Source of the DNA: Callorhinchus milii
Taxonomy: Eukaryota
Length of the DNA stretch: 64,000 nucleotides
Assembly (NCBI RefSeq): GCF_018977255.1
Contig: NW_024704743.1
Span: 9,364,001 to 9,428,000, forward strand
Direction: 5' to 3'
Below, piece after piece: positions 2,047 through 36,581 of the stretch (positions within the stretch are counted from its first letter, which is position 1; the number at the start of each line of letters is the position of its first letter). Position numbers and translations under genes: made by a program. Under the pieces are notes generated by a model. It was given only the letters and a program-made list of their open reading frames with translations. It was not told the DNA's origin and did no database searches.

Positions 2047-2418
<372 letters not shown>

Positions 2419-11125: not shown

Positions 11126-12655
11126 GAAAATACAACATGATTCAATATAACATTTGTGAAGCACCTTTCACGGTGGGAGGACATCCCAAGGTGCTGAATA
11201 GTCATGGGTTAAGACGCGAGCTGGAGTGGGGTGGGGGAAGATCCAGGAGGGTGCAGGGCAGAGAGGGTGACGGTTTTGAAGAGTTGTGCCTTCAAGGAGG
11301 CAAGGGAGGGAGCGAGGTGAAGGGAATGTGGGATGGAGTTCCAGAGGGTGGGAGAGAGAGTCTGAAGACCCAACCACGCATGTTGGAGCCAGGTGGGGGA
11401 CATGGAGCAGGCCAGAGTCTGCTGAACGGGGGGAGCAGACATAATAATAATAATCTTCTAGACGTCTCAAAGCACTTCAGACAGGTTGATAAGGGGTTAG
11501 CAGGTCAGAAAGGTAGGAAGGGGCAAGGCCATGGAGGGCCTTGAAGGCGAGAATGAGGATTTTGAACTCAATCCTCTGAGGGATGGGGAGCCAGTGGAGC
11601 CGGGCAAGAATGGGTGTGATGGGATCAAGGAGTCTGGTACGGAAGAGGTCACAAGCTGCAGAGTTCTGGATGATCTGCAGCTTGTGGAGGGAAGAGTTGG
11701 GAAGCTCAACAAGCATAGTCGAGCCTGGATATAATGAAGGCTTATATGAGGGTTTCGGCAGCCTGAGGGGTGAGCCAGAGTCAGGCAATGTTTCGTAAGT
11801 GAGGAAAGGTAGAGCGGGTAATGGCACGGATGTGGAAAAAAAGGGGGGATGAGGGTCGAACAAGACGCCAAGATTCCTGATTGACTTGGTGAGGTGGAGC
11901 GTGCATCCCTGAATGGTGATGCTGCCAGTGCCAAAGGTGCGGAGGCGCGGGTGTGAGCCAATCAGGCTGACGTTCTTGCTGACTTTCAACTGTAGAAAGT
12001 TGGCTCTCATCAAGGACTTGATGTCTGACAGGCAGTCTGTCAGTGATCCTGGAGTTGAGGGTGGAGGCAGAGAGATAGAGCTGCGTGTCATCCGCGTACA
12101 TGTGGACGTTGACCCCATGTCTGCAGATGATGTCACCAAGAGGGAGCATATACAGGTTGAAGAGGAGACAACCAAGGACAGAGCCCTGAGGAACACCACA
12201 TGAGACGATGCAGGGGCTGGAAGAGAGGCTGTTTGTGGAGACAAAGTAGGCCGGTACGAGAGATAGGATCTGGATCATTCAAGAACAGAATCTTAAAGGT
12301 GAGAGGTTAGTTGTTGGAGGAGGATAGAGTGGTCCATAGTGTCGAAGGCAGCGGAGAGGTCGAGGAGGACGAGGAGATAGAGGGAGCCCCAACCACAGAT
12401 GGACAGAATGTAATTTGTCACCTTGACCAGGGTTGTTTCTGTGCTGTGAGCAGCAGGGAAACCCAATTGGAGAGGTTTGTAAAGGGAGTGGCAAGAGGGG
12501 AAGGAATGAAGCTGGGAGGAACAACTCTTTATGGACCTTGGAAAGGAACGCAAGGTTGGAGATGGGGCAGGGATAGGTCAGGGAAGGTTTTTTTCTAGGA
12601 TAGAGGCGAAAACAGCTGTTTTTAGGGGGGTGGGAATGGTGCCAGTTGAGAAAGT
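11126..12655 (-). mobile_element. L2 LINE, ~1.5 kb 3' portion including the reverse-transcriptase core (frameshifted)
   Basis: RT motifs [12 protein letters not shown]...[26 protein letters not shown]...HMYADDTQLYLS, and C-terminal LHWLPIPQRIEFKILILAFKALHGLAPSYLSDLL lie in different frames. Interrupted by a 36-bp insert at 11442-11477. Confidence 0.95.
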
Positions 12656-12794
12656 CATTGATTTAAATGAAGAAGACTATTATTTCAAAACATGAAGCAA
12701 TTGTGACTTTTACTCTATTTTTGTAACACAGACTTAGGGTGAAGGTTGCTTGTGACTTATATGGAACCCGCCTTAAGAGACTTATTAAGAGACA

Positions 12795-15770: not shown

Positions 15771-16003
15771 CACCCCTCTCTACAAGCCATAATGGGAACA
15801 GCAGAGGAGATGTGAGCTCTTTAGGCAGCGAGCTATCCATTGATTTTGAGAGCAGTGGGATCTAGTTTAGCTTTATAATTGGGTAAGGTACATGCAATAG
15901 AAATTTAACACTGACCGATGTAAAGTGTCATCCATTTGTGGTGTATAATCTTTTATACATTTGTATAAAATCAATGAAATTAGAGAGATTTAGGAAGAGA
16001 AAA

Positions 16004-16244
16004 CAATAATAATCCTTGCATTTGATATAGCGCTTTTCACGTCTTCTAGACATCTCAAAGTGCTTCACAGAATATACTGGAAAGTGAATTGACTGTCTGT
16101 ATACTTGTGGATGAAACTCAGCAGCCAATTGTGCACAACAGTGTCCGACAAACAGTTGTGGAATGAGTGACCAAATTACTATAGGTTTTTTTAAAGAATT
16201 ATTATCCCCGGAAAAGCAATCCGCCAACCAACTAACACCAGGTT
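16004..16244 (-). mobile_element. SINE family A, long subtype, 5'-truncated at the FAT1 fragment
   Basis: Tail at 16004-16030; the body ends ...gaaaagcaatccgccaaccaactaacaccaggtt exactly where the FAT1 sequence starts. Confidence 0.88.
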
Positions 16245-16624
16245 AGATGGTGGTGGCAAGATGGCTTTCTGTAATATCAATGTGATCTTCGCTGATGAAA
16301 ATGATAATGTGCTTCAGTTCTGAGCTGCAGAGTGTAAGGTAAATATCAGTTTATATGCTTCAAAGGGATCTTCAGTCATTCAGATTGTGGCGTCTGATGC
16401 CGAGGGAGGAGTTGGGGACAATTGTCTATTTTATTGAGGCAGATTCTGACAATGTTGAAGAAAATCTGGAAATCGATTCATTTTCTGGGGTCATCACCAA
16501 AGAAAATCTCTTTGGTCCGGAAAACAACTTTTACAGTTTCTTTGTCCGAGCTAAAGATGGCGGAGTCCCACAGCAGGAGTCTGCTGTCCCCGTCTATGTT
16601 AGAATACTCCCACCTGAAGTAAAA
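16245..16624 (+). pseudogene. FAT1: Decayed FAT1 protocadherin coding fragment (about one cadherin repeat)
   Basis: Frame 1 reads DGGGKMAFCNINVIFADENDNVLQF*AAECKVNISLYASKGSSVIQIVASDA. After a frameshift near 16402-16416 it continues GTIVYFIEADSDNVEENLEIDSFSGVITKENLFGPENNFYSFFVRAKDGGVPQQESAVPVYVRILPPEVK. Collinear with recalled human FAT1 DAGGKVAFCTVNVILTDDNDNAPQFRATKYEVNIGSSAAKGTSVVKVLASDADEGSNADITYAIEADSESVKENLEINKLSGVITTKESLIGLENEFFTFFVRAVDNGSPSKESVVLVYVKILPPE. In-frame TGA at 16321-16323. Confidence 0.9.
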
Positions 16625-16700
16625 CACTGCACCTTCAGCAATGCAGCCTTACCTCAGGACAGTACTGGAACATCAATGTAGATTAGAAGTTTAATTCCTT
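16625..16700 (-). mobile_element. Deu-domain SINE fragment
   Basis: gcaccttcagcaatgcagccttacctcaggacagtactggaacatcaatgtagatt resembles 33269-33325 and 52895-52940. Confidence 0.55.
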
Positions 16701-16704
16701 AGAA

Positions 16705-17162
16705 TCATAATACCTGCATTTGATATAGCACCTTACCTCATCGAAAGTCACAAGTACTTCACAAGATTTGCTGTAAAGCATAGTGATTGTTTATTTTCAA
16801 TGGTGGCTGCCAATGTGGCAGCCAATTTGCACTTAGCAATGTCCTATGAAGTGAATGACCAATTTTACCTGGGGGATCGTTTGCCAAATTCTAGGAGAAA
16901 TTCCCTTCTCTTTTTGAATTGAACCATGGGACTTGTGATGTCCACCCGAACAGATTTAATATCTCATCAAAAAGCCACTACTTTCATCAATGCAACACTC
17001 TTCCAAGACTGCACTGGAGTGTCAGCCAAGGCAAAGAGTCTCAAAGTCCCAATGTAGGGCTTGAAACAACAATCTTCTAACTCAACAGTAACAAAATTAC
17101 ACTTCTATTGCGCCTTTCATCTCGCGAGAGGTGAGAATGTTACCAACTGAGCCAGACTGACA
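16705..17162 (-). mobile_element. Deu-domain SINE (family B), near full length
   Basis: Runs from tail (cctgcatttgatatagc) through core (ccatgggacttgtgatgtccacccgaacag) to head (gtgagaatgttaccaactgagccagactgacat). Confidence 0.8.
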
Positions 17163-32669: not shown

Positions 32670-33395
32670 GTTGGTTGTCGAGATGCCTCAAAGTGCTTTA
32701 CAGAATTTGACTGTGGAATGCAGAGACTATGCAGTTCTGGTGACTGTGTACTTTAAACGTGGCAGCCAATTTGCAAACAGCAACATCCCACAAATAGTCA
32801 AAATAAATGACCAATTTTATTTGAGGGATTTTATGGCCAGGACACTAGAAGAAACTCCCTTCTCTTTTGGAGTAGTGCCATGGGATCTTTAATAATAATA
32901 ATCCTTGCATTTGATATAGCGCTTTTCACATCGGGAGGACGTCCCAAAGCACTTCACAGAACACACTGTGAAGTGAATTGACTGTATATTTTTGGGCGAA
33001 CGCGGCAGCCAATTGCGCACAGCAATGTCCCACAAACAGTCGTAGATTGAAAATGACCAATTTATTATTGTTTTTGGTTGTGGGGGGATTATTATTAGGC
33101 GTGTGGAGTAAGGAAACTTGCCCAAGGTTTCGCCCTGCCTGGAATTGAACTCAGGTCTCTCGCTTGCAAAGCGAGTGCTCTAACCACTGAGCTACAGGAC
33201 TCCAATATCCTTAATATCCTCCCGAACAGGTAGGCGTGACTTTGTCTTAACGCCTCGTCCAAAGGATGGCACCTCCAACAAATGCAGCGCTCCCCCAGCT
33301 CTGCATTAGAGTGTCAGCCTAAATGGTAAAATCAAACTAGGATGTGTGGCTTGAACACACAGCCTCTGACTCAGAAGAGTGCCACGAGCTGAGCC
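32670..33395 (-). mobile_element. Deu-domain SINE (family B) split by a family A SINE
   Basis: 3' half ends ...gtagtgccatgggatcttt (32890); 5' half resumes aatatcctcccgaacagg...ctctgactcagaagagtgcc (33205-33395). Confidence 0.8.
32890..33204 (-). mobile_element. SINE family A, full length, short subtype, young-looking
   Basis: Nearly the reverse complement of 3202-3515; head ends gtgctctaaccactgagctacaggactcc. Confidence 0.93.
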
Positions 33396-34380: not shown

Positions 34381-34895
34381 GTACACGCATGCAGAGACAC
34401 ATACCAGCACATACACAGACACATACCAGCACACACGCAGAGGCACATGCCGACACACACATACATGCAGAGACACATGCTGCCACACACACACATGCAG
34501 AGACACATACTGTCACGCACGCCGAGACACAAATGCCAAAACACACGCAGAGACAAATGTCGAAACACATACATGCAGACACACATACCCACACAGACGC
34601 ACACAGAGACACATGCCGACACACCAACACATACGCAGAGTCACATAATGACACACACACACAGACTCATGCTGACACACATGCACACACACAGACACTC
34701 CCACACAGACACGCACACATACACATTCCCACACATAGACAGGCACACACATATACACTTCCACACACAGACACACACCCGCACTCCCACACACTGACAC
34801 GCACACATAAACACACACAGACACGTACACACACGGCCACAGACATGCAGACACATGCCCCATGCAGGCATGCACGCACGCATACAAACACACGC
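34381..34895. repeat. Degenerate (CA)n-derived minisatellite, ~515 bp
   Basis: Recurrent units such as cacacacatgcagagacacat; produces stop-free HT/CV ORFs in many frames. Confidence 0.95.
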
Positions 34896-35835: not shown

Positions 35836-36581
35836 ACAACAACAACTTGCATTTATATAGCGCCCTCCACACTGGACTGCATCTCAGAGCGCTTTACAGT
35901 AACGGATCCCGGGACCGAGCCAGGGGGAGGGGACGGAAGGTGACCAAAGGCGTGGTCGAAAAGAAAGGTCTTCATCAGAGACCTGAAAATGGGAAGGGAG
36001 GGAGTGAGATGAAGGGAGTGAGGAAAGCAGTTCCAGAGCCTCGGGGAATAGTGGCTGAAGGCACGGCCGCCGAGGCTGGAGCGGAGGACTCGGGGGACAA
36101 GGAGGAGGCCAGACCCAGACGAACGAAGGCAACGGATACTGCTTTGAGGAGAGAGGTCAGAGATGTAGGGGGGTGCAGAGGAGTGCAAGGACTTGAATAC
36201 AAGGGTGAGGATCTTGAAATCAATCTTCTCTGGATTAGGCAGCCAGTGCAGTCTGGCAAGATCTGGGCTGATCGGGGAGTGGAGTTTCATGCAGGTGAGA
36301 ATCCGGGCAAGGACTGAGGTGATCGGGGAGCGGAGTTTCATGCGGGTGAGAATGCGGGCGCCAGAGTTTTGAATGATTTGGATTTTATGGATGGTAGTGA
36401 ATGGGAGACCAGCAAGGAGGGCATTAGAGTAGACCAGCCAAGAGGTGACAAAGGCATAGACCAGGGAGAGAGGTATTGGCGGAGACGGGCGATGCGTCGG
36501 AGGTGGAAGAAAGCGGTGCTGATGAAGGACCGGATGTGGGGGAGGAAGGATAATTGGGGGTCGAACCTGATGCCTAGGTTG
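35836..36581 (-). mobile_element. L2 LINE 3' fragment (second tail type, ...tataaatgcaagttgttg) inserted into a family A SINE
   Basis: AFVTSWLVYSNALLAGLP...IQNSGARIL...LHWLP...FKILTLVFKSLH...GGRAFSHYSPRLWN. SINE pieces lie at 35795-35839 and 36582-36731. Confidence 0.92.

Follow-up and report, generated by a model that had tools for sequence, protein, structure and literature searches.

How did a short piece from the interior of the FAT1 coding sequence come to lie in an intron of PARD3 in Callorhinchus milii? An earlier note on this DNA had read the piece as an orphan, captured from FAT1 mRNA or DNA and stranded in the intron of this elephant shark gene. The window, meaning the whole stretch of DNA analysed here (64,000 nucleotides; all positions refer to it), contains the following features around the piece.

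2130 to 2310, minus strand: coding exon of PARD3, the host context (100% over 60 aa, tblastn, splice sites).

16000 to 16005, no strand assigned: left copy of a candidate target-site duplication (TSD), AAAACA (sequence; chance 0.0036-0.0057).

16006 to 16244, minus strand: 5'-truncated tRNA-SINE of family A (copy alignment, nhmmer 213 bits, L2-like tail).

16245 to 16620, plus strand: internal, pseudogenic FAT1 coding fragment (parent contigs, Pfam, nearest proteins).

16621 to 16626, no strand assigned: right copy of the candidate TSD, AAAACA (parent loose end differs; chance tests).

16627 to 16696, minus strand: internal piece of a family-B SINE (nhmmer, divergence 17 of 54 columns).

The host gene is as the earlier note had named it. 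The exon at 2130-2310 on the minus strand has AG/GT splice sites and encodes residues ~75-134 of PARD3 (tblastn), and two C. milii records, one of them named partitioning defective 3 homolog, match its translation at all 60 aa (100%); the next species reaches 85%, and a PDB search with the exon returned nothing relevant. Residues 1-73 of the PARD3 protein have no match in the 64-kb window, and the intron, which we take to be intron 2, appears to continue past it. The insert lies in this intron, 13.9 kb upstream of the exon in transcript direction and antisense to PARD3. For one C. milii protein in UniRef (P0167, 174 aa), translation would begin at an intronic ATG, 30 codons upstream of the exon, and pass through the PARD3 acceptor (window 2311-2400, minus strand), which has the appearance of a gene-model artefact.

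In a six-frame translation, two frames contain cadherin-like sequence between ~16246 and 16620, and the motifs DENDN, ASDA and VRAKDGG, on which the reading as a FAT1 ectodomain segment had been based, are present in the translation. In tblastn, FAT1 proteins match 16246-16410 and 16421-16621 collinearly (64% and 69% for a sturgeon protein, P0001; E 2e-37); in the alignment, a stop faces Arg and there is a gap of one residue. The fragment corresponds to about residues 2570-2696 of a 4,615-aa FAT1 and spans a cadherin-repeat boundary; its Pfam Cadherin match (E 3e-4) is below the curated cut-off, and a PDB search with it returned generic cadherins alone. Among 24 chosen proteins, the pieces reach their highest identities with FAT1 of coelacanth (77%, 66 columns) and of paddlefish (65%, 54 columns). 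A protein search with the second piece was matched by 46 of 58 candidates, the sole gene-named match being FAT1. This piece shares 58-73% with five named FAT1s and one unnamed FAT1-like protein, versus 45-46% with three unnamed paralogue-like clusters (P0287, P0299 and P0300); the first piece is less discriminating, with 53-64% to FAT1s versus up to 53% to unnamed paralogue-like clusters. In the protein tree, the rows nearest to both short pieces are FAT1, and no starred clade holds the pieces. The proposed check of the best match thus came out for FAT1, which ranks above the paralogue-like clusters for the second piece. Judged by similarity, FAT1 is the best assignment of the fragment, the comparison paralogues being unnamed clusters.

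Compared with the FAT1 protein, the fragment holds 127 of ~4,600 codons, with a stop, a frameshift and a codon loss, and has no start, signal peptide or membrane anchor. An ORF of 108 aa occupies 16355-16678. As the earlier note had stated, it is the only FAT sequence seen in the window: four full-length FAT1 proteins gave no further tblastn match in the 64 kb at E<=0.05, and no larger FAT1 duplicate came to light there.

The limits of the fragment and its reality follow from sequencing reads assembled into contigs. Four of 24 sequencing runs were aligned on 16205-16690 at 80% likeness: X2, X3 and X8 from organism A, the same species, and X12 from organism B. The stretch or a part of it occurs in 12 of the 24 listed runs, and half or more of its words in six, all of organism A and belonging to two studies, of which one may be the source of the window. 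Zero-difference contigs bridge the left junction in X2 and X3 (16208-16382; two of three same-species runs) and the right junction in X2, X3 and X8 (16554-16690; three of three, from two studies), and five such contigs tile 16208-16690 in X2. The junctions are therefore not an assembly join. The insert is not covered from end to end by any single contig, and since copy and parent do not differ over 55 nt (16529-16583), the contigs do not prove the phasing across that interval.

A second type of contig in X2, X3 and X8 represents the parent. It matches exactly the span 16245-16620, which sets the length of the fragment at 376 nt, and extends beyond it (up to 3,755 and 6,495 nt). The left end proposed earlier, 16245, was therefore correct, and the right end, 16624, was not, because the parent match ends at 16620. 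A tblastn extension to 16639-16645 was rejected as chance similarity to the family-B SINE. Hand-translated, the loose ends of the parent contigs read KLITITVMAK before and PVPKFSESL after the matched span, like FAT1 proteins there, with the frame kept; at the left end, the DNA run X12 continues like X8, which may be an RNA run. The parental reading frame continues past both ends, and neither looks like an exon boundary, as the earlier note had stated for this part of FAT1. In assembled contigs, the homologous stretches belong to single products of 1,250-1,420 aa, placing the piece within one long exon; for this reason, the piece itself does not discriminate between RNA and DNA as its source.

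Copy and parent differ by 29 substitutions over ~375 sites (7.7%; 26 listed and three unlisted near contig ends) and at four indel places. Where both types align, the bin depth equals the sum of copy and parent contigs (22.7, 22.9 and 19.6 in X2), and there is no third sequence version among the contigs listed in the four aligned runs, depth not being equal to copy number. No joints were found among the contigs of these four runs (X2, X3, X8 and X12), and no listed X12 contig bridges either junction; contigs of this kind show presence, not absence. The parent FAT1 gene is thus present in the same sequencing runs, intact and running on in frame beyond both ends, which supports the earlier claim that the fragment is a real captured internal piece of FAT1.

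The captured piece carries the following changes relative to the parent.

16321 to 16323, plus strand: premature stop (parent C at 16321, codon table).

16401 to 16420, plus strand: frame-shifting cluster of six substitutions and three indels (parent contigs).

16494 to 16495, plus strand: site of a 3-nt in-frame loss (parent contigs; one-residue tblastn gap).

The stop is TGA where the parent has CGA (Arg), with C at 16321 in all four aligned runs of organisms A and B. It arose by CpG decay of the Arg codon, exactly as the earlier note had suggested from the letters. The frame does shift, through three small indels at 16409-16420, which leave the copy a net 2 nt shorter than the parent and belong, with six substitutions, to one cluster. 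The codon reported as missing corresponds to the 3-nt loss after 16494, seen against the parent in three of three organism-A runs.

The FAT1-type contigs of organism B (X12) were used to polarise the changes. Outside the indel cluster, 20 differences separate copy and parent, of which ten fall on the copy branch, five on the organism-A gene branch, and five were not polarised; nine more are specific to organism B. The codon counts leave out the six cluster substitutions, one organism-B change beside the cluster, and the three unlisted differences near contig ends. On this basis, the copy branch has eight non-synonymous changes (including the stop) versus two synonymous ones, and the neutral expectation is not rejected (p 0.74-1.0). 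The gene branches have 4-5 versus 9-10, which are small counts, and differ from the copy branch with a Fisher p of 0.047, or 0.036 with the doubly changed codon taken as one of each. A comparison of the dN/dS type against the parent, which the earlier note had recommended, thus yields a neutral pattern in the copy that differs from that of the gene. The FAT1 piece has evolved neutrally since copying and shows no sign of function.

The branch counts also give an approximate date. With five changes on the A branch and nine on the B branch (p 0.42), the copying falls close to the split of organisms A and B or later. With a substitution rate of 1.0-1.1e-3 per site per million years, as given in PMC5499810, a copy branch of 5-7% translates into very roughly 50-70 million years. 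The chimaerid split is put at ~187 million years ago in PMC12952989, and the synonymous distance between A and B is 0.20-0.26; if organism B is a chimaerid with that split time, the copy would be roughly 80-130 million years old. Taken together, the decay may have lasted some 50-130 million years, as a rough estimate. Within 16309-16328, the FAT1 gene of organism A has changed V to I and A to V, and the dead copy still agrees with organism B at both residues; the fossil thus keeps the older FAT1 state.

The description as an orphan did not survive, because the piece directly adjoins a SINE that lacks its 5' end and carries an (ATT)n tail. Similarity to the SINE reaches as far as 16244, and 16245 is the first base matched by the parent. 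Past this border, the letters of other SINE copies and those of the parent both depart from the window; the join is therefore blunt, with neither overlap nor filler. The SINE lies on the minus strand up to 16244 and FAT1 in sense on the plus strand from 16245, and the two, in opposite orientation, are fused at the truncated 5' end of the SINE. This left neighbour, a family-A tRNA-SINE (16006-16244), is 239 nt long with its tail at the left and covers model positions 2-242 of 376, the head and B box being missing (aligned with ten window copies; nhmmer 213 bits). The head of full-length family-A copies in the window carries what we take to be a B-box-like motif. The truncated copy is 10.9% from the window consensus, an upper bound on its divergence since the consensus mixes subfamilies, and has 3.6% private changes. 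Its tail is similar to three L2-like pieces of the window at their 3' ends.

The right neighbour is an internal piece of a family-B SINE at ~16627-16696 on the minus strand (nhmmer E 1.5e-6 and 4e-7), which is 31.5% from the window consensus (17 of 54 columns) and is taken as pre-existing target DNA. Families A and B share ~155 nt of their 3' end (model positions 2-156). The idea that the FAT1 piece splits one SINE in two was rejected, as the left and right neighbours belong to different families. The left flank (15771-15999) matches no window repeat and no part of family B. Family A is probably CmiSINE (SINE2-1_CM / SINE2B-1_CM) and family B probably SacSINE1-CM of the Deu type, both named from the published description only. 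According to PMC5499810, CmiSINEs share a tail with L2-2_CM, and CmiSINEs and SacSINE1-CM of C. milii are mobilised by L2-2_CM. The same source describes a younger and an older tRNA-SINE family that have ~160 bp of 3' end in common as well as an L2 tail. The window families match this pattern (~155 nt shared; 10.9% versus 31.5%), a likeness by description and not by consensus. The C. milii genome as a whole is described as dominated by LINEs and SINEs (PMC4350176).

Several further repeats in the window were recorded. A full-length family-A SINE (32894-33203) sits inside a split family-B SINE (32803-33372) with a 4-nt repeat and a short extra duplication; this nesting shows that A is younger than B. 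The stretch 57215-57791 holds a pair of almost complete family-A SINEs on opposite strands whose tails meet, clipped and overlapping. Broken pieces of an L2-like reverse transcriptase occupy 11480-12662 on the minus strand (Pfam RVT_1, E 1.8e-8 and 7.7e-5), and further L2-like 3' pieces occur near 9.4k, 14.2-15.1k, 35.9-36.6k, 43.5k and 62.8k. A 51-nt tandem duplication lies inside an L2-like piece (36255-36359), and 34383-34853 is a 470-nt degenerate CA-rich minisatellite.

By which route did the two parts arrive? An mRNA 3' end with poly(A), expected of a classical L1-type processed pseudogene, is not found, the piece being internal; as the earlier note had observed, poly(A) is missing, with no run of six or more A in 16151-16760. 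A short direct repeat is present instead: AAAACA occurs at 16000-16005, just outside the SINE tail, and again at 16621-16626, from the first base after the parent match. The right copy is not derived from the parent, whose loose end behind 16620 differs. The repeat brackets SINE and FAT1 together and neither alone; for the SINE by itself, only a 3-nt match is found (p 0.35). The chance of at least 6 nt is 0.0057 when this tail, its end left free over ten positions, is compared with every window position, and 0.0036 when all 38 tails are compared with random positions, with a separate estimate of 0.0043; these values belong to a test that was devised after the match had been seen, on a repeat that is short and A-rich. 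None of the 37 other tails gives at least 5 nt with this right flank. For calibration, nine family-A copies that have a tail and a sharp end were chosen by eye among the 45 other hits, and their exact repeats measure 7, 5, 4, 4, 3, 2, 2, 2 and 2 nt (at least 5 nt in two of nine), indicating that family A can leave short duplications. TSDs of the L2 clade are reported to peak at 3-5 bp (PMC4245944). AAAACA is therefore a statistically supported candidate for a TSD around the whole composite.

The outer junction admits other readings of the repeat. No exact microhomology between target and FAT1 was found there, the parent continuing with unrelated letters, and the parent has no A4 run closer than one that begins 9 nt past the end (by eye). 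The start of the family-B piece is no more than ~8 nt from the right junction, and no tail half of that element was found on the left; this arrangement also fits a deletion at the site. AAAACA could likewise be eroded family-B sequence, about three of the first eight nucleotides matching the family-B majority (by eye). One contig of organism B bears on the state of the target. Record 6 of X12 (230 nt, depth 3.1) matches 16617-16690 with 13 of 74 differences (17.6%), and its first 122 letters do not align to the FAT1 piece. The value of 17.6% is close to the synonymous distance between A and B, while window paralogues match the family-B piece at only 39-61%, and the last bin in X2 and X3 is covered by the locus contig alone. 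The record may be the pre-insertion site, or it may be one of ~218,000 paralogous copies, with a chance per copy of 6e-7 to 3e-5 at 55-60% identity.

The bracketing of the composite by AAAACA suggests retrotransposition as the route, and SINE and FAT1 piece were probably inserted together, as one composite, by L2-type machinery. Within such an event, the FAT1 part may have been copied from FAT1 RNA that was primed at the second target end, a form of 'twin priming' with foreign RNA that we consider close to an even call, falling somewhat short of it. In this model, an L2-type LINE enzyme would nick the target at a 6-bp staggered site, and the SINE RNA would be reverse-transcribed from its (ATT)n tail for 239 nt before synthesis halts. 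Across the cut, FAT1 mRNA or pre-mRNA would be copied from the opposing free 3' end, yielding a 376-nt cDNA in opposite orientation. The two cDNA ends would then be joined bluntly, and filling of the staggered gap would duplicate AAAACA. Lacking promoter, start codon and splice sites, the FAT1 piece would decay neutrally from then on. The parts, their orientations and exact limits, the blunt inner junction and the neutral decay are taken from direct observation, to which the model adds a single event, the enzyme, the RNA template and the order of priming.

The enzyme is suggested by the SINE tail, which is like L2 3' ends in the window, and by nearby reverse transcriptase domains (Pfam RVT_1). 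Priming on FAT1 RNA is favoured because it explains both the opposite orientation and the exonic donor. A precedent comes from human L1, where antisense, unspliced internal mRNA pieces, found in two of 17 chimeras, are ascribed to twin priming (PMC13174262). Against it stands the zebrafish element ZfL2-1, which produced no 5' inversions in cell culture, and the argument made in the same work that a 5-nt overhang is perhaps too short for twin priming (PMC4245944). The missing microhomology at the outer junction, the SINE that leans towards greater age, the break in family B, and the short, A-rich repeat also count against twin priming. A more general proposal, that abortive L2-driven SINE insertions in chimaeras regularly capture inverted internal pieces of host (pre-)mRNA by second-end priming, would run against the view that L2 machinery does not twin-prime, and is put forward tentatively, as unlikely rather than likely.

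The same single insertion could have used another template. The FAT1 piece would then have been copied from DNA, or from the antisense strand by a template jump, while the 5' end of the SINE was being joined; such a copy would amount to a '5' extra sequence' of exceptional length with a distant template, synthesised by reverse transcriptase or a host repair polymerase. We regard this as unlikely, though worth serious attention, as it accounts for the shared TSD and the junction no less well and does not depend on twin priming, for which L2 overhangs may be too short. Extra nucleotides at the 5' end, many of them templated by the flanks, are reported for about 40-50% of zebrafish ZfL2-2 inserts (PMC2666801, PMC4245944), and the fragment has no splice junction. 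The extras described in these studies, however, are a few nucleotides long or flank-derived, not 376 nt of a distant gene. Moreover, a DNA template would yield either orientation and mostly non-coding sequence, whereas the piece found here is exonic and antisense to the SINE.

A second alternative separates the two parts in time. A full-length SINE would have inserted first, and a later double-strand break would have removed its head together with a stretch of unspecified length that contained the tail half of the family-B SINE, before a FAT1 patch closed the gap as a class 2 templated-sequence insertion; the 6-bp repeat would then be due to chance. The state of both neighbouring SINEs, which are cut at or near the FAT1 ends, is what such a break would leave. 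No repeat brackets the FAT1 piece alone and poly(A) is absent, and class 2 insertions are described as having neither TSDs nor poly(A) (PMC5110952). The SINE may also predate the FAT1 piece (p 0.05-0.18). Its divergence range of 3.6%-10.9% brackets the FAT1 copy branch of 5.3-7.1%; in counts, the SINE, at an upper bound of 24 of 221, is compared with 10 of 187 (p 0.049) or 15 of 211 (p 0.18) for the FAT1 copy, and at non-CpG sites 19 of 202 with 8 of 185 (p 0.07). The two ages are compatible, with the SINE leaning older (p 0.05-0.23). On the other hand, a break and patch need a chance event of ~0.5% to place the repeat at a boundary defined by the parent, neither junction has the microhomology or added bases typical of class 2, and truncated family-A copies are common without any patch, four of the nine calibration copies ending near model position 180-205. 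A history in two steps is unlikely to about the same degree as a DNA template.

An assembly artefact, the remnant of a segmental FAT1 duplication and a functional, exapted element are each very improbable accounts. An artefact would agree with the lack of one contig over the whole insert and with the 55-nt identity of copy and parent at 16529-16583, but both junctions are covered by zero-difference contigs and the copy differs from the parent at 29 sites; a duplication remnant has no other FAT1 piece in the 64 kb beside it, and function is contradicted by the stop, the frameshift and the neutral ratio of non-synonymous to synonymous changes. Least probable of all, and hardly to be entertained, is that the SINE adjoined the FAT1 source and carried it along (transduction or a SINE-tailed retrocopy): the composite is indeed SINE-tailed, but the parent in X8 and X12 reads FAT1-like before 16245 where the copy has SINE, which contradicts transduction, the FAT1 piece is antisense to the SINE, and no third sequence version occurs among the listed contigs.

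Insertion of the composite in one event, which we prefer, has its nearest counterpart in the antisense mRNA/LINE-1 chimeras of Law and Burns 2026 (PMC13174262). As there, a stretch of host mRNA sequence without splice features or first exon lies in opposite orientation at the 5' end of a non-LTR element, with one TSD, here a candidate, around the whole; two of the 17 mRNA/lncRNA chimeras described in that work are not sense. Unlike in those chimeras, a non-autonomous tRNA-SINE takes the place of L1, and its tail is (ATT)n, not poly(A). Further differences are the machinery, presumed to be of the L2 clade, a 6-bp repeat in place of the 14-17 bp of the figured examples, and the cartilaginous-fish host. 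Co-arrival of the parts was shown by orthologous alignment in that work; here it is probable.

Other known insertions share only some of these features. Like the inserts of ZfL2-1 and ZfL2-2 described in PMC4245944 and PMC2666801, the composite has an L2-type tail, what is probably a short TSD, 5' truncation and foreign sequence at the cut end. The ZfL2 extras reported there are, however, short and largely flank-derived, without 5' inversions for ZfL2-1, while the present one amounts to 376 nt from a distant coding exon. The templated sequence insertions of classes 1 and 2, as defined in PMC5110952, are similar in being short copies of a distant locus with an intact donor. Class 1 is described as needing poly(A) and an L1 site, both absent here, and class 2 as having no TSD but marks of NHEJ, in contrast to the candidate TSD that encloses SINE and fragment. 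In listings of a mainly open-access literature, no report of this locus or of an opposite-orientation SINE-L2 chimera was found. The kind of object is known; the variation lies in the partner, which is a SINE, in the L2-type tail accompanied by a short duplication, and in a host that is a cartilaginous fish.

The locus is a fossil without sign of function, and its value is that of a record of mechanism, since the parent fixes both limits to the base. The insert may also provide a presence/absence marker for chimaera lineages. If the composite did arise in a single event, L2-type machinery that moves a SINE can join an inverted piece of foreign mRNA to it, a reaction described for L1 (PMC13174262) and not found for zebrafish L2 in the cell-culture experiments of PMC4245944. 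This would bear on whether second-end priming is general to non-LTR retroelements, and on how L2-rich genomes copy pieces of host genes. If the route proved to be recurrent, it would provide for the scattering of exon fragments, independently of poly(A), in genomes dominated by L2 and SINEs.
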